A DNA stretch of 44,540 nucleotides from Escherichia phage vB_EcoS-phiEc4, in sequence record MZ576218. The stretch is one strand, 5' to 3'. The notes under the pieces were generated by a model. That model saw nothing but the letters and a program-made list of their open reading frames with translations. It made no database searches and was not told the DNA's origin. Positions 4,875 to 42,871 of the stretch are shown piece after piece. A program made the position numbers and the translations under genes. Position 1 is the first letter of the stretch, and each line of letters begins with the position of its first letter.

Positions 4875-4901
4875 GACGGCCTCCTCGGTTCGATAGAATG
4901 A

Positions 4902-4930
4902 ATAGTACCCTATTATATTGGGGTGTGCAA
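4902..4930 (-). promoter_or_regulatory. sigma70-like promoter P_A copy 1 (TTGCAC-17-TACTAT) with AATAG-N4-CTATT palindrome
   Basis: reverse complement reads TTGCACACCCCAATATAATAGGGTACTAT; 29-bp block recurs at 14137..14165, 37896..37924, 39119..39147. Confidence 0.6.
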
Positions 4931-14094: not shown

Positions 14095-14136
14095 AACATA
14101 ACTCCTGATTTGAGATAACATCGTTGGTGTAAGTGA

Positions 14137-14165
14137 ATAGTACGCTATTATATTGGGGGGTGCAA
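14137..14165 (-). promoter_or_regulatory. promoter P_A copy 2 (TTGCAC-17-TACTAT) with AATAG-TACG-CTATT palindrome
   Basis: near-identical to 4902..4930; drives the minus-strand Imm/phosphoesterase/phosphatase/kinase operon. Confidence 0.6.
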
Positions 14166-31258: not shown

Positions 31259-31287
31259 ACTATAATAGCTAACTATTCATGTGTCAA
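31259..31287 (-). promoter_or_regulatory. promoter P_B (TTGACA-17-TATAGT) with AATAG-CTAA-CTATT palindrome in spacer
   Basis: reverse complement reads TTGACACATGAATAGTTAGCTATTATAGT. Confidence 0.6.
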
Positions 31288-34169: not shown

Positions 34170-34198
34170 ACTATAATAGCGAACTATTCACATGTCAA
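34170..34198 (-). promoter_or_regulatory. promoter P_B (TTGACA-17-TATAGT) with AATAG-CGAA-CTATT palindrome in spacer
   Basis: reverse complement reads TTGACATGTGAATAGTTCGCTATTATAGT; divergent from the HTH gene promoter. Confidence 0.6.
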
Positions 34199-34222
34199 TG
34201 GGCTTTTCTAAAATAATTAATA

Positions 34223-34231
34223 TGGTACTAT
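34223..34231 (+). promoter_or_regulatory. extended -10 element TGgTACTAT upstream of the XRE-type HTH gene
   Basis: TGn-TACTAT about 30 nt upstream of ATG 34263; resembles the -10 half of the P_A family with degenerate palindrome AATAT-GGTA-CTATT. Confidence 0.4.
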
Positions 34232-34262
34232 TCACACATCAACTGACTAAGGAGTAATTGAC

Positions 34263-37858: not shown

Positions 37859-37895
37859 GAAACGAAAGAATCACAGCGGCAACGTAACTATTCTC

Positions 37896-37924
37896 TTGCA
37901 CACCCCAACATAATAGGATACTAT
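37896..37924 (+). promoter_or_regulatory. promoter P_A copy 3 (TTGCAC-17-TACTAT) with AATAG-GATA-CTATT palindrome
   Basis: TTGCACACCCCAACATAATAGGATACTAT; followed by leader GAGACAGAGGAG and gene 37959. Confidence 0.6.
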
Positions 37925-37958
37925 TCACTTATCGAAACGAGACAGAGGAGTGAGGGTT

Positions 37959-38971: not shown

Positions 38972-39004
38972 TGTTCAATAGTTTGGGATTTTACTGAGTG
39001 ACTT

Positions 39005-39040
39005 ACGCTGCTACACAGCAGCGTATCATTTTTCTCATTT
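39005..39040 (+). terminator. rho-independent terminator
   Basis: ACGCTGCT-ACAC-AGCAGCGT 8-bp stem followed by ATCATTTTTCTCATTTTTG. Confidence 0.65.
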
Positions 39041-39118
39041 TTGTTCTATTTCACCAAACGCAACAATCGAAGCGACTATTGCAGGAGATGCAACAATACA
39101 AACACCAATAAAATTTAC

Positions 39119-39147
39119 TTGCACACTAAGATAGAATAGGCTACTAT
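39119..39147 (+). promoter_or_regulatory. promoter P_A copy 4 (TTGCAC-17-TACTAT) with AATAG-GCTA-CTATT palindrome
   Basis: TTGCACACTAAGATAGAATAGGCTACTAT; followed by leader GAGAGACAGAGG as in copy 3. Confidence 0.6.
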
Positions 39148-39178
39148 TCATTTACACAAACTAGAGGAGAGACAGAGG

Positions 39179-39485: not shown

Positions 39486-39922
39486 GTAACAAAAACGAAG
39501 TATTCGAGTACCTGATTGACCAGCTACGGCAGCAGGTAAATAACAACCGGTGCGAAGACCTGGCGCATGAGGTGCAGTCACTTAAGAATCAGTTACGCGA
39601 TGCGTCGGCGCAGATTAAGGAGTTGCAGAGTGAGTTACAGCATCAGATTGACCTGGCGGCGGGTGTGTATAGATGGTCTACCGCACATTTCGACGAGAAA
39701 GGTAAAGTCTTCAAGGTCGAGCGTGGGATTAAGACTGAGCAATCTGGTTGCCGTAAAGAAGATACTCATAGCCAAGGAACCGGAGTATCCGGGCGAGTTC
39801 GGGAAGGCGGTGTTAGGGTGACAGGATGTCAGTCGGAGTGCAGTCATTTATGGCATTACACCGACGACCACTTAGTACATTGCGTTTTGTGTGGGTTAAA
39901 AAGGAGCGACGAAGCGCTATGA
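39482..39922 (+). CDS. hypothetical protein with coiled-coil N-terminus and Cys-rich C-terminus
   Basis: 146 aa; ATGA coupling; CQSEC and CVLCG motifs. Confidence 0.5.
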   Translation: MSNKNEVFEYLIDQLRQQVNNNRCEDLAHEVQSLKNQLRDASAQIKELQSELQHQIDLAAGVYRWSTAHFDEKGKVFKVERGIKTEQSGCRKEDTHSQGTGVSGRVREGGVRVTGCQSECSHLWHYTDDHLVHCVLCGLKRSDEAL

Positions 39923-40122
39923 CCAGCATCTTATTTATCTGGGTACTATCCGCCGGCCATATGCAACTGGCGGCAACAGAAACGTTTTACTCAATGGAGG
40001 CGTGCCAGTCAGCGGCACGCGCCGCAGAGAACGCGCACTTCCTGTTTCAGGGGGACAAGCCCATCGATTCAGAGGTACGCGCTATCTGCTCACCTAAGCG
40101 ACTTGGTAAACAGGAGAAATAA
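39919..40122 (+). CDS. small protein with N-terminal hydrophobic segment
   Basis: track ORF 39826..40122; ATG 39919 overlapping previous stop; MTSILFIWVLSAGHMQLAA. Confidence 0.45.
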   Translation: MTSILFIWVLSAGHMQLAATETFYSMEACQSAARAAENAHFLFQGDKPIDSEVRAICSPKRLGKQEK

Positions 40123-40123
40123 C

Positions 40124-40318
40124 ATGGTACAGAGATACGAGTTAGAGTTGTTTCATCAGAAAGGTGGCTCGGTAAACCCGTGCGATGATGGTGGATACAT
40201 AGAGTACGAAGATTACGCGAAACTCGAAGCCGAGTTACAGAAATACAAGGACCAGTTTCCTGATTACGTTGAGTGCGCGAACTGTGGGTCAGTTACACAT
40301 GTGGAGGGGGTGGAGTGA
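40124..40318 (+). CDS. hypothetical small protein (paralog A)
   Basis: track ORF 40103..40318; ATG 40124 with RBS AGGAGA; MVQRYE...YEDYAKLE. Confidence 0.45.
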   Translation: MVQRYELELFHQKGGSVNPCDDGGYIEYEDYAKLEAELQKYKDQFPDYVECANCGSVTHVEGVE

Positions 40319-40497
40319 TGGCGCAGAGATATGAAAACGACCATGGCGATATGTTTCAGGTCGCCGAGGGTAATTGGGTTCGCTACGAAGATTACGCGGA
40401 ACTGGAGCGCAAACTGCGTAACTTCGCCGACCAGGTATTGTACGCACCTTGTTCGAAAGTTACCGAAGAAACGGCCCGCGAGATTCTGGACCTATGA
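40318..40497 (+). CDS. hypothetical small protein (paralog B)
   Basis: track ORF 40273..40497; ATG 40318; MAQRYE...YEDYAELE similar to upstream neighbour. Confidence 0.45.
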   Translation: MAQRYENDHGDMFQVAEGNWVRYEDYAELERKLRNFADQVLYAPCSKVTEETAREILDL

Positions 40498-40787
40498 GCC
40501 TTGCAACTGACATCCTGAAACGGAGCGGCCTTGCGCCGCTGTCGCCGAGAGCGAACACACGAATATACAAGCGTCGCCGTAACGTGCTGTACCCAGAGAT
40601 TCAGGACAGACGTAAAGCTATCCGCGCCTGTGGATTCCAGAACGGGAAGGCTGTGAATCTCGGTGAGTTTAAAACGCAGGAGCGCGCTGCAATCGCTAAT
40701 CGGTTATTTAATTACTGGAAATCGCTGGGATACGATGATATTCCGACGAAACCACAGAGACGACAATACATCTGGCGTCATAAATAA
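40494..40787 (+). CDS. hypothetical basic protein
   Basis: track ORF 40449..40787; ATG 40494 with ATGA overlap. Confidence 0.45.
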   Translation: MSLATDILKRSGLAPLSPRANTRIYKRRRNVLYPEIQDRRKAIRACGFQNGKAVNLGEFKTQERAAIANRLFNYWKSLGYDDIPTKPQRRQYIWRHK

Positions 40788-40817
40788 ACCGTTATTAAGA
40801 TAATTCCTAACCGTGCT

Positions 40818-40857
40818 ATCCTCCAGTTACTGCATACTTAATACGCACCTGGAGGAT
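40818..40857 (+). promoter_or_regulatory. RBS-sequestering hairpin upstream of holin gene
   Basis: perfect 9-bp inverted repeat ATCCTCCAG...CTGGAGGAT; 3' arm contains SD GGAGGA of TTG-initiated holin ORF. Confidence 0.45.
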
Positions 40858-40862
40858 TCATC

Positions 40863-41171
40863 TTGGATAAATTTACTGAAACAGTGACAGGCTGGCTTCT
40901 CGCTGCCGCGCTAGCCGGAGGGGTAATCGGACTACGACAACATAAGTCTGTTATTTCTGGCCCCATCGACGGATTCTGCTTTATCGCAACCGGCTTCACT
41001 TGCGCTGTATTCGGCGCGCCTCTTGCCGCTCAATGGTTCGGTATTACCGGAGAGCGCGAGATAGCTGGCCTCGGATTCATCATCGCAATTCTCTGGATGC
41101 CCATCTATTCCCGTCTCTCCGGTATCGTCTCTGGAGAATACATCGCTCGTCGAGGAGGCACAGATGAATGA
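40863..41171 (+). CDS. holin (three predicted TM segments)
   Basis: 102 aa, TTG start; hydrophobic segments and charged C-terminus; immediately upstream of endolysin. Confidence 0.6.
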   Translation: MDKFTETVTGWLLAAALAGGVIGLRQHKSVISGPIDGFCFIATGFTCAVFGAPLAAQWFGITGEREIAGLGFIIAILWMPIYSRLSGIVSGEYIARRGGTDE

Positions 41172-41436
41172 GTTATTCTGGTTCGGCGGTATGCTGGCAA
41201 TCGGAGGCACATCGCTGTTTAATGTATATCACCCCAGCGTGGATGACGGATTATTTGGCCGGGTGCTCTATATCCTGACTGCCATCGTCTGTGCTGCCGG
41301 ATGTATCCACCTGTTACAGGGCAGCATGTCACCAACGCTGCCTGAGACGTTAATCACATTAGTTGCGCTGCGTCAGATTCGCCAGGTGTGGCTGTCATAC
41401 GGAGGACATAAGCGTGTCTCGAAATATTTCAGATAA
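41164..41436 (+). CDS. second lysis membrane protein (holin or antiholin-like)
   Basis: 90 aa with two hydrophobic segments between holin and endolysin. Confidence 0.45.
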   Translation: MNELFWFGGMLAIGGTSLFNVYHPSVDDGLFGRVLYILTAIVCAAGCIHLLQGSMSPTLPETLITLVALRQIRQVWLSYGGHKRVSKYFR

Positions 41437-41899
41437 TGGATTGCATTTTACCGCCGCGTTCGAGGGATTCCGAGGAACTGCGTATCGCGCTACACCGAAT
41501 GAGAAGTACCTGACTATTGGGTATGGAAGCTATGGCCCGCATGTTAAGGCGGGGCAGACCATCACTCCAGGACAAGGCCTCCTGTTACTTAATCGCGATA
41601 TGGCTAAAGCCGTAGCTGCGGTTGATGCGGCAGCGCACCATTCACTGACACAGGCACAGTTCGACGCTGTGTGTGACCTGGTCTACAACGCAGGCGCTGG
41701 CGTGATTGCCGCTACCACGGGCACAGGTAAGGCGCTGCGTTCTGGTGACATCGAGACGCTGCGGGCTAAGCTGACACTGTTCATCAACCAGAACGGCAGA
41801 CCACTACTCGGCCTGCGTCGCCGTACAGCAGGTCGTCTGGCGCTGTTTGACGGTAAACCGTGGCAAGAGGCGGAGGCAATTGGGAGGGCTGTTAGATGA
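41414..41899 (+). CDS. endolysin, phage lysozyme (GH24-like)
   Basis: track ORF 41363..41899; likely GTG start 41414 with RBS GGAGG; motif FEGFRGTAY...TIGYG typical of T4-type lysozymes. Confidence 0.8.
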   Translation: MSRNISDNGLHFTAAFEGFRGTAYRATPNEKYLTIGYGSYGPHVKAGQTITPGQGLLLLNRDMAKAVAAVDAAAHHSLTQAQFDAVCDLVYNAGAGVIAATTGTGKALRSGDIETLRAKLTLFINQNGRPLLGLRRRTAGRLALFDGKPWQEAEAIGRAVR

Positions 41900-41960
41900 T
41901 GGAAGAAAACTGGGACGTATAGTAAACTTACTCCCACGCTGCTTGTGCTTGCACCACCCG

Positions 41961-41991
41961 AAACCCGGACCGCGAATCCGGGTTTTATTTT
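41961..41991 (+). terminator. rho-independent terminator after lysis cassette
   Basis: perfect 9-bp stem AAACCCGGA/TCCGGGTTT, loop CCGCGAA, followed by TATTTTA. Confidence 0.75.
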
Positions 41992-41996
41992 ACCAA

Positions 41997-42025
41997 TTGA
42001 CACCTAAGACTAATCCGACGATACT
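41997..42025 (+). promoter_or_regulatory. sigma70-like promoter (TTGACA-17-GATACT)
   Basis: consensus -35 with 17-bp spacer; lies between two terminators. Confidence 0.5.
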
Positions 42026-42031
42026 TAAATC

Positions 42032-42096
42032 ACCTCCTGTTCCATCCCTCTGCTCTCCAGTTTTATCCCGGCCCTGACCCAGCCGGGATTTTTTTA
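42032..42096 (+). ncRNA. candidate ~65-nt small RNA with CCUCC anti-SD-like motif
   Basis: bounded by promoter 41997..42025 and terminator 42065..42096; no ORF. Confidence 0.35.
42065..42096 (+). terminator. rho-independent terminator
   Basis: ATCCCGGC-CCTGACCCA-GCCGGGAT followed by TTTTTTTATC. Confidence 0.7.
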
Positions 42097-42117
42097 TCTA
42101 TTTCCGATAATGACTAG

Positions 42118-42146
42118 TTGACTATTACCACCGACCCTATTATATT
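42118..42146 (+). promoter_or_regulatory. sigma70-like promoter (TTGACT-17-TATATT)
   Basis: read directly; about 35 nt upstream of ATG 42181. Confidence 0.55.
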
Positions 42147-42180
42147 TACTCCATCGACAACGAGAACGGAGTAGAGAGAA

Positions 42181-42330
42181 ATGAAAATCACAGATATCGA
42201 TGCATTCGAAGACGCACAACTGATGGCACGCATCGCCGTCAATAACCTGAGTGGTAATATCCCGGCGGATGCGTTCTGGGCCGCCGCGATGCAGACACTG
42301 AAAGCCGCTTATGCAGGAGAGAAGAAATGA
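42181..42330 (+). CDS. 49-aa hypothetical protein
   Basis: not in track; RBS GGAGTAGAG; ATGA overlap with next ORF. Confidence 0.45.
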   Translation: MKITDIDAFEDAQLMARIAVNNLSGNIPADAFWAAAMQTLKAAYAGEKK

Positions 42331-42485
42331 GTGAACAAGGTCAAGTAAGCCAACCGTTACGAGTAGGCCGTAAAGTCAGTCACACCCCGTTCCCGACACG
42401 TGAAGAACTGATGAAACGTAACAGTTTCCCGGGGCCGGACAAGAACAAGTATCTCAATCGCATGTGGGGAGAGCGTAAAGAATGA
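42327..42485 (+). CDS. 52-aa hypothetical protein
   Basis: not in track; translationally coupled on both sides. Confidence 0.45.
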   Translation: MSEQGQVSQPLRVGRKVSHTPFPTREELMKRNSFPGPDKNKYLNRMWGERKE

Positions 42486-42871
42486 CTGACCGCGAATATG
42501 AAAAGATGATGGTTGAGGCCGTTAACAGCGGCGTAGACATCGGACACGTGATGCGCGTCCTGAATACTAAAATCGCGGTAGCCGAGCAAATGGTCGAGTC
42601 GCTTTACGAGACGCGCCGTATTCTGGTGCTTGAGTCGGAGAAACAGACGTTAGGAGGGCAACTGTCGATTAACGGTGAGTTTCAGCTGGAGGCGTTCCGT
42701 ATACTCCTCGGCGTTATGAAGCAGGAACCCAGCGCATACGCAGGAGTGTTCCTTGACGAGGAAGGTTCGCAGACACTAAGTTACTACGCTACCGAAGAAG
42801 AATTAGCGTTCGACGGCCCCGCGGTATCTATCCCGCTGTTCGATAACTGGATGGTGTACGACTATGACTAA
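42482..42871 (+). CDS. hypothetical protein
   Basis: 129 aa track ORF, ATGA coupling. Confidence 0.5.
   Translation: MTDREYEKMMVEAVNSGVDIGHVMRVLNTKIAVAEQMVESLYETRRILVLESEKQTLGGQLSINGEFQLEAFRILLGVMKQEPSAYAGVFLDEEGSQTLSYYATEEELAFDGPAVSIPLFDNWMVYDYD

Follow-up and report, generated by a model that had tools for sequence, protein, structure and literature searches.

A conserved RNA hairpin over the holin Shine-Dalgarno sequence of Kagunavirus and related siphophages, with a promoter-like motif in its 5' arm

In phage T4, a hairpin on the long early transcripts of the lysozyme gene e cuts lysozyme synthesis ~100-fold, while late promoters in the DNA encoding its 5' strand give rise to unlocked mRNA; the same lock design is found at T4 soc, 49 and I-TevI and at mobE of phage Aeh1 (PMC3014915). 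In phage lambda, the sdi stem-loop of the holin gene S includes the holin ribosome-binding site and tunes both the translation of the holin and the timing of lysis (P22 gene 13 and phage 21 S21 have counterparts); it sets the ratio of S107 antiholin to S105 holin at a dual start (PMC3369941). Here we describe an RNA hairpin immediately upstream of the holin gene in a 44,540-nucleotide (nt) stretch of DNA from Escherichia phage vB_EcoS-phiEc4 (sequence record MZ576218), referred to below as the window. The hairpin pairs the Shine-Dalgarno (SD) sequence of the holin, and its 5' arm is overlapped by a motif resembling a sigma70 extended -10 promoter. The window is of the genus Kagunavirus (Guernseyvirinae, lytic E. 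coli siphophages), and its lysis region is 99.8% identical to that of Escherichia phage vB_Eco_K-02 and 87-94% identical to those of ~120 Kagunavirus records.

The locus resembles T4 gene e in combining a lysis gene, an SD-pairing hairpin and, as a candidate here, a promoter in the DNA of the 5' strand. The two differ in that the endolysin is locked in T4 and the holin here, in unrelated siphoviruses, and in that T4 uses a gp55-dependent late promoter, whereas the candidate here is a host sigma70 extended -10 promoter. In several relatives of the window, unlike T4 gene e, the hairpin also has intrinsic-terminator features, and the difference in translation between long and short transcripts is here a predicted one, estimated from computed opening energies. 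SD-sequestering hairpins with embedded promoters before lysis genes are established in T4-like phages; literature searches returned no description of the hairpin element in Guernseyvirinae, Dhillonvirus or their relatives.

As in lambda S, an RNA stem-loop lies at the holin ribosome-binding site. The stem here is far more stable than sdi and buries the whole SD, pointing to an on/off device rather than a partition between two products. There is also no dual-start motif: the protein begins M-D-K-F (N-terminus MDKFTETV), with further in-frame start candidates only at codon 8 (GTG) and codon 79 (ATG), so that the holin is not a member of the lambda S dual-start/sdi class.

The spacer before the holin gene contains the following features (coordinates are those of the window).
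40814-40822, + strand: extended -10-like motif TGcTATCCT, with TG at 40814-15 and the hexamer TATCCT at 40817-22; a motif match, with a predicted transcript start at ~40829.
40818-40826, + strand: 5' arm AUCCUCCAG, anti-SD-like, from the sequence and RNAfold.
40827-40848, + strand: loop of 22 nt, almost unchanged among mainstream Kagunavirus; divergent relatives have a different or a shorter one.
40849-40857, + strand: 3' arm CUGGAGGAU with the SD GGAGGA at 40851-40856, invariant in all 46 Kagunavirus-type loci.
40857-40862, + strand: U-rich spacer UUCAUC from SD to start codon, homologous to the U6-U8 tract of relatives.
40863-41171, + strand: holin gene, 102 amino acids (aa), TTG start at 40863-40865, phrog_2359 match.

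The arms ATCCTCCAG (40818-40826) and CTGGAGGAT (40849-40857) form the perfect 9-bp (base pair) inverted repeat that the initial annotation described, with the bases and coordinates it gave, and GGAGGA lies within the 3' arm, 6 nt before the TTG it was said to serve. That annotation also called the gene a holin starting at TTG, and both calls agree with our results. In a profile search, the 102-aa open reading frame (ORF) matches the holin family phrog_2359 over residues 1-96 (E = 1.8e-29), and homologues in relatives carry the annotation 'class II holin-like'; the holin label is thereby a putative one, drawn from profile annotation and gene position. The TTG is the earliest possible start of the ORF, and TTG GAT AAA (or AGC AAA) is the reading in all 46 Kagunavirus-type loci and is matched in alignment by ATG GAT AAG in the homologue from Dhillonvirus, so that homology confirms the start. 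The GenBank holin coding sequence of vB_EcoS_fFiEco02 (L041, 1961-2272) begins at ATC, 3 nt before the conserved TTG, which is probably a start-codon mis-call. Literature searches found no experimental work on the phrog_2359 family, and Pfam gave no match for this holin, the second holin-like gene downstream or the upstream small genes.

RNAfold assigns -14.2 kcal/mol (z = -4.6) to the 40-nt hairpin with its 9-bp stem and -16.1 kcal/mol (z = -2.5) to a 57-nt segment, in which three extra outer pairs (40813-15/40859-61) extend the stem to within one base of TTG; in a 113-nt context the fold signal is weak (z = -1.26). A 9-bp inverted repeat is by itself not beyond chance, as the window holds 12 perfect ones with loops of 3-40 nt against 6.4 +/- 2.9 in shuffled sequence, and 13 of 200 shuffles reach 12. 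The case beyond chance comes from the pairing of the SD, the conservation of the spacer and the recurrence of the hairpin with covariation in other genera. The holin SD is paired with a computed probability of 0.9995, ranking first among 55 SD-bearing genes of the window as called with a crude script (median 0.59). Opening the SD-to-start region of a transcript carrying the 5' arm costs a computed 13.7 kcal/mol, which makes strong translational repression of such transcripts very plausible. An Rfam 15 scan of 39500-42500 (E <= 1) gave nothing relevant, its sole overlap with the hairpin being a minus-strand STnc500 match at chance level (14.1 bits against a gathering score of 44). Pattern search and blastn-short found no other copies of the spacer or its motif in the window, so that the spacer is not a repeated regulatory site.

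Within the Kagunavirus-type set (46 loci, 43 distinct sequences; individual loci are given L numbers), divergence in the 75-nt spacer is 0.049 per site, as compared with 0.265 at third codon positions of the holin and 0.256 at the end of the upstream gene; at holin codon positions 1 and 2 it is 0.043. The third codon positions thus diverge about five times as much as the spacer, which is unchanged where the upstream gene differs. In about half of related phages, an HslV-like peptidase gene lies immediately upstream (L005, L008, L010, L025 1200-1440). The conserved TTAGGATAATTCC consists of the last codons and stop of this gene and is kept in the window (~40788-40804), which lacks the gene; 40792-40804 may thus owe part of its conservation to being a leftover of recombination and not to function as a -35 region. 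Natural variants of the 5' arm include A40825G in L039 and in Salmonella phage PK1 (L043), and C40824T together with A40825G in L060. In L029/PK1 two loop substitutions produce 13 uninterrupted stem pairs (RNAfold draws 14), and in L025 a single loop substitution adds a tenth.

A mosaic junction is found in L029 (1296-1500) and PK1 (1-185). It contains a complete Jerseyvirus-type hairpin, U-run and GTG, but the Jerseyvirus holin breaks off after 32 codons and gives way to the spacer, hairpin and holin of the Kagunavirus type, so that two hairpin modules stand in tandem. From this arrangement, the control module and holin appear to have been swapped in as a unit.

Homologous holins of 25-68% identity have a hairpin in this position, and in every case its 3' arm contains the SD. 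A word-indexed protein search for distant homologues returned close relatives only, whereas an exhaustive profile search yielded 19 representatives; P0019 was not found in viral contigs, and alignment A2 proved too divergent for scanning loci. The elements are given below in the order -10-like motif with 5' arm; loop; 3' arm, spacer and start codon.
Window (Kagunavirus): TGcTATCCTCCAG; 22 nt; CTGGAGGAT TCATC TTG.
L060: TGgTATCCTCTGG; 15 nt; CTGGAGGAT TTATT TTG.
HK578 (Dhillonvirus): TGaTATAGTCCCAGTGAG; CTAAAA; CTTACTGGGACT TTTTT ATG.
S100 (Jerseyvirus): TGcTAATCTCCGAAGG; 9 nt; CTTTCGGAGATT TTTTATT GTG.
L078/L080/L082 group: TGaTAATCTCCGTATGG; 7-8 nt; CCTATACGGAG, 11 nt, ATG.
Serratia phage Otaku: TATACT GCCTCGG; 11 nt; CTGAGGC TTCAC ATG.
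KW1E_UTAR/Klebsiella KLB16: TACTAT TCCCCGG; 7 nt; CTTCGGGGAT TTTTTTT ATG.

Six lineages share one order (-10-like hexamer, anti-SD 5' arm, loop, SD-bearing 3' arm, U-rich spacer, start codon), and their stems are spelled differently. Hairpin z-scores range across the lineages from -2.8 to -8.2 against shuffled sequence, compared with +0.6 and -0.6 for the homologous holins of Pantoea phage Nafs113 and Pectobacterium phage Wc4-1, which have no hairpin. MAFFT did not keep the hairpins of different lineages in structural register (alignments A3 and A4), and 14 distinct hairpins were therefore aligned with a covariance model, which gave compensatory changes in 7 of 12 pairs; the alignment is fitted to the structure, and the count is biased towards pairing. 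The covariation score was 0.313, against 0.155 in shuffled alignments (0 of 500 reach 0.313) and 0.05-0.13 with slid partners. The covarying inner pairs lie outside both the SD and the -10-like motif, and hence the complementarity itself appears to be under selection. The long-loop hairpin of the window itself was missed by the model, and its place in the series rests instead on alignment of the TGnTAnCCTCC block and on the intermediates L060, L029 and PK1.

The variants also indicate which nucleic acid is selected. Those of L039, PK1 and L060 form G·U pairs on the + strand, where the other strand has an A·C mismatch or the DNA symmetry is broken, and every other lineage has at least one + strand G·U pair. 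Stem changes being either compensatory or tolerated as + strand-only G·U, RNA is the selected form. That the hairpin is a real, selected RNA structure is well supported, and mechanistically it is unsurprising.

When the upstream regions are aligned with MAFFT, the four specified bases of the -10-like TGnTA are invariant, as is a T three bases further on, and TGnTAnnnT is found in the same place relative to the hairpin in 46 of 46 Kagunavirus, 16 of 16 Dhillonvirus and 16 of 16 Jerseyvirus-type loci. The columns invariant across these three genera (78/78) are T-15, G-14, T-12, A-11 and T-7, which are the ones most important when sigma70 recognises a promoter of the extended -10 type. Position -13 is free to vary, being C in 22 Kagunavirus loci, G in 24 and A, C or T elsewhere, and the genera differ from one another at hexamer positions 3-5 (-10 to -8). 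A comparable arrangement is that of E. coli galP1, an extended -10 promoter (TGnTATGGT) lacking a good -35 element; TG at -15/-14, T-12, A-11, T-7, a non-consensus hexamer middle and a weak -35 are common to both, with the difference that the phage promoter is a candidate, proposed from its sequence. In all five lineages, the predicted start, 7 nt past the hexamer, coincides with the final base of the 5' arm or lies past it. A transcript begun at ~40829 would lack the 5' arm, so that the hairpin could not form and the SD would be open. The computed opening cost from the predicted start is 5.0 kcal/mol in the window, as against 13.7 on the long transcript, and 2.5-7.6 against 10-18 kcal/mol in 9 of the 10 lineages tested.

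These observations are best accounted for by a conditional lock of the T4 gene e type, a reading that we hold tentatively and rate as somewhat short of probable. On transcripts that begin in the small-gene operon upstream (promoter near 39133) and carry the 5' arm, the + strand RNA hairpin would lock the holin ribosome-binding site, and the holin would probably be translated mainly from mRNAs begun inside the hairpin. We infer that the extended -10 motif at 40814-40822 is an active promoter, from which initiation at ~40829 would give a 34-nt leader with no arm and a free GGAGGA; read-in and internally initiated transcripts would then take the parts that early and late transcripts play in T4. 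In Dhillonvirus, Jerseyvirus and KW1E-like phages, where the loop is short and followed by U6-U8, the hairpin should in addition terminate upstream transcription, whereas in the Kagunavirus window the terminator features would have decayed (22-nt loop; tail UUCAUCUU), leaving a mainly translational lock. Overall, the holin dose and with it the timing of lysis would be insulated from upstream transcription, the dose being set by a weak dedicated promoter and the TTG start.

The transcriptional context provides a candidate source of the long transcripts.
39004-39025: terminator-like hairpin, from a scan of the region.
39113-39153, + strand: sigma70-like promoter TTGCAC-N17-TACTAT after the 39004-39025 site, carrying one of seven copies of TGAATAGTAnCCTATTAT.
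40494-40787, + strand: last gene before the spacer, phrog_9632, function unknown, stop codon at 40785-40787.
41961-41995, + strand: intrinsic terminator-like hairpin AAACCCGGA/TCCGGGTTT with T-run, closing the unit that contains the lysis genes.
The promoter at 39113-39153 is the probable origin, judging from its sequence and position, of transcripts reading into the holin gene. Small genes are tightly packed up to 40787, the ~75-76 nt with the hairpin before the holin being the sole real gap, and the lysis cassette forms the distal end of the + strand unit. No terminator-like site was found between 39025 and the hairpin, so that read-through transcripts carrying the full hairpin are expected; by this reasoning upstream transcripts would reach it.

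Several points weigh against the conditional lock. A generic sigma70 promoter scan of 39800-41600 called no promoter, the published annotation of phage fBC-Eco01 predicts none in the homologous spacer, and the -35 region is poor, with at best 3-4 of 6 matches. T-7 and the following CC double as stem bases, and the hairpin may explain part of the motif's conservation; Otaku and KW1E have good hexamers adjoining the arm (TATACT, TACTAT) but lack the TG. A second -10-like hexamer, GATAAT (40799-40804), would start transcripts upstream of the hairpin. The contrast in opening cost fails in L060 (3.1 against 3.4 kcal/mol), where the lock on the long transcript is weak, and on short transcripts the SD is still paired with a probability of 0.3-0.85 in weak alternative folds. 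No reason is apparent for an extended -10 promoter to fire late, and literature searches found no transcript maps or 5'-end data for Kagunavirus, Jerseyvirus or Dhillonvirus.

The alternative that survives best is a constant translational damper, in which all holin mRNAs carry the full hairpin, rare breathing and the TTG start set the time of lysis, and no internal promoter exists. This is in essence what the initial annotation proposed in attributing low holin translation to a sequestered SD and a non-ATG start. Its elements stand, in that the SD is buried in a stable, conserved hairpin and the TTG is real, and the hairpin, the SD occlusion and the conservation speak for a damper too. It also agrees with the lack of a called promoter in the spacer, by our scan or in published predictions, and with the lysis genes being the last in what looks like a continuous operon. 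However, a computed 14-18 kcal/mol is a very high price for opening the site of a protein that is required in many copies; in relatives, a hairpin followed by U6-U8 should end most incoming transcription at the start codon, calling for another source of transcripts; and the invariance of TG, TA and T around a free base is left unexplained. Given TGcTATCCT over the 5' arm and the computed fall in opening cost from 13.7 to 5.0 kcal/mol, we consider a constant damper unlikely, and less likely than the conditional lock. The TTG, invariant in Kagunavirus, is a lineage-specific extra rather than part of the conserved device, since relatives with the same hairpin start at ATG or GTG.

A second alternative is that the element is mainly a terminator or attenuator before the lysis cassette, passed by leaky read-through or by phage antitermination as in lambda pR'-tR'-S, with SD pairing as a by-product. 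The hairpins of Dhillonvirus, Jerseyvirus and KW1E-like phages have the textbook geometry of an intrinsic terminator, with a short loop and a U6-U8 tail running into the start codon; that of HK578 has a 12-bp stem, a 6-nt loop and U6 (-24 kcal/mol, z = -8.2), and in the GenBank record of Klebsiella phage KLB16 the homologous hairpin is annotated as a terminator that overlaps the ribosome-binding site. It is mainly these homologues that resemble lambda pR'-tR' in having a terminator hairpin directly before the holin gene; in lambda, however, the promoter lies ~200 nt upstream, whereas the promoter-like motif here overlaps the terminator. The short-loop, G+C-rich terminator stem of HK578, S100 and KW1E/KLB16 is not present in the window, whose loop is 22 nt and whose tail, UUCAUCUU, has 5 U in 8 but an interrupted U-tract. 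A terminator scan of 39800-41600 found no terminator-like site, and the hairpin is not among the ARNold terminators published for fBC-Eco01; from its sequence, the window hairpin is apparently a poor terminator with weak or decayed features. The L078-L082 group and Otaku retain the SD-locking hairpin with no U-tract, from which it follows that SD locking is universal and termination an add-on in some lineages. No Q-like antiterminator gene or qut site was identified. We regard termination as the main function as quite improbable. Where a terminator does abut the start codon, transcription of the lysis genes must come from read-through or from a promoter overlapping the hairpin, and TGnTAnnnT is located exactly where the latter would be. 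Pantoea phage Nafs113 presents an unfused version, with a terminator, then TATAAT, then a free SD.

It is very improbable that the 9-bp arms, 31 bp apart centre to centre, constitute a DNA operator binding a dimeric phage or host regulator of a lysis promoter. The perfect symmetry of the arms and the near invariance of the whole spacer, loop included, in mainstream Kagunavirus would suit such a site. Natural variants nevertheless break the DNA symmetry and retain pairing only in + strand RNA, and homologues have their arms anywhere from 6 to 22 nt apart, both of which argue against a protein operator; the sequence is also not repeated in the genome, unlike the seven-copy motif TGAATAGTAnCCTATTAT. 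Finally, a chance complementarity of the SD to a pyrimidine-rich tract, seemingly conserved through close kinship, is hardly credible: 9-bp repeats are indeed not rare, but the spacer's conservation relative to synonymous sites and the differently spelled hairpins with compensatory changes in other genera speak against it.

Three further candidates were rejected. The stems, at 9-14 bp, are judged too short for RNase III processing. Translational coupling to the 40494-40787 gene would have to bridge the 31 nt between that gene's stop codon and the 5' arm, too great a distance. An RNA thermometer is at odds with a perfect G+C-rich stem that costs ~14 kcal/mol to open.

Downstream of the holin, the cassette continues with two genes.
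41164-41436, + strand: second holin-like gene, 90 aa, ATG start with its own SD, phrog_2508 (E = 4.6e-34), overlapping the first holin by 8 nt.
41414-41899, + strand: endolysin, GTG start, PF00959 (E = 6.7e-26), last gene of the cassette.
The lysis genes at 40863, 41164 and 41414 use three different start codons (TTG, ATG and GTG), each with its own GGAGG-type SD, and overlap at 41164-41171 and 41414-41436. In L060 (2001-2813), the most divergent Kagunavirus-like lineage (holin 68% identical), there is no second holin-like gene and the endolysin directly follows the first holin; the computed SD lock is also weak there (3.1 kcal/mol). Upstream of the cassette, the adjacent small genes 40124-40318 and 40318-40497 both belong to phrog_29624 (function unknown) and share a 23-nt repeat (40205-40227 and 40384-40406; 91% identical), and the pair looks like a tandem duplication.

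The quasi-palindrome TGAATAGTAnCCTATTAT occurs in seven copies against 0.08 expected (4899-4916, 14134-14151, 31262-31279, 34173-34190, 34217-34234, 37910-37927 and 39133-39150), all in stretches without a listed ORF of at least 100 aa, and is absent from the holin spacer. The same motif was reported by PHIRE as a 'phage RNA polymerase promoter' in fBC-Eco01 (PMC9825357). At 37890-37930 and 39113-39153 it reads TTGCAC-N17-TACTAT on the + strand, and to us a sigma70 promoter with a palindromic operator lying across it seems the better description. After the endolysin, 41961-42146 forms a dense control array, in which the first terminator is followed by a promoter TTGACA-17-GATACT (41997-42025), a second terminator with T7 (42068-42090), a promoter TTGACT-17-TATATT (42118-42146) and a gene at 42181. 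By analogy, the 41997-42025 promoter and the 42068-42090 terminator could produce a ~65-nt RNA reminiscent of the lambda pR'-tR' 6S RNA; Rfam gave only sub-threshold small-RNA matches in the array (42051-42097).

A broader possibility, which we consider rather doubtful, is that Guernseyvirinae, Dhillonvirus and KW1E-like siphophages have in common a compact mobile cassette. In it, the hairpin would both stop incoming transcription and bury the SD, and the extended -10 promoter in the 5' arm would supply the only translatable holin mRNA, insulating the lysis clock; the cassette would travel with the holin by recombination, as in L029/PK1.

Lysis timing is a main fitness trait of phages and a design variable for therapeutic phages, and many Kagunavirus and Jerseyvirus isolates are under development for therapy. 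Were the hairpin a constant damper, it would be an ordinary translational attenuator. If the conditional lock is correct, these widespread coliphages and salmophages control the holin dose by a ~50-nt module that fuses promoter, terminator and ribosome-binding-site lock, and the logic of T4 gene e would have evolved or spread outside T4-like phages with host sigma70 signals only. Small and portable, the module would also serve as a useful natural part with which to express toxic genes without leakage.

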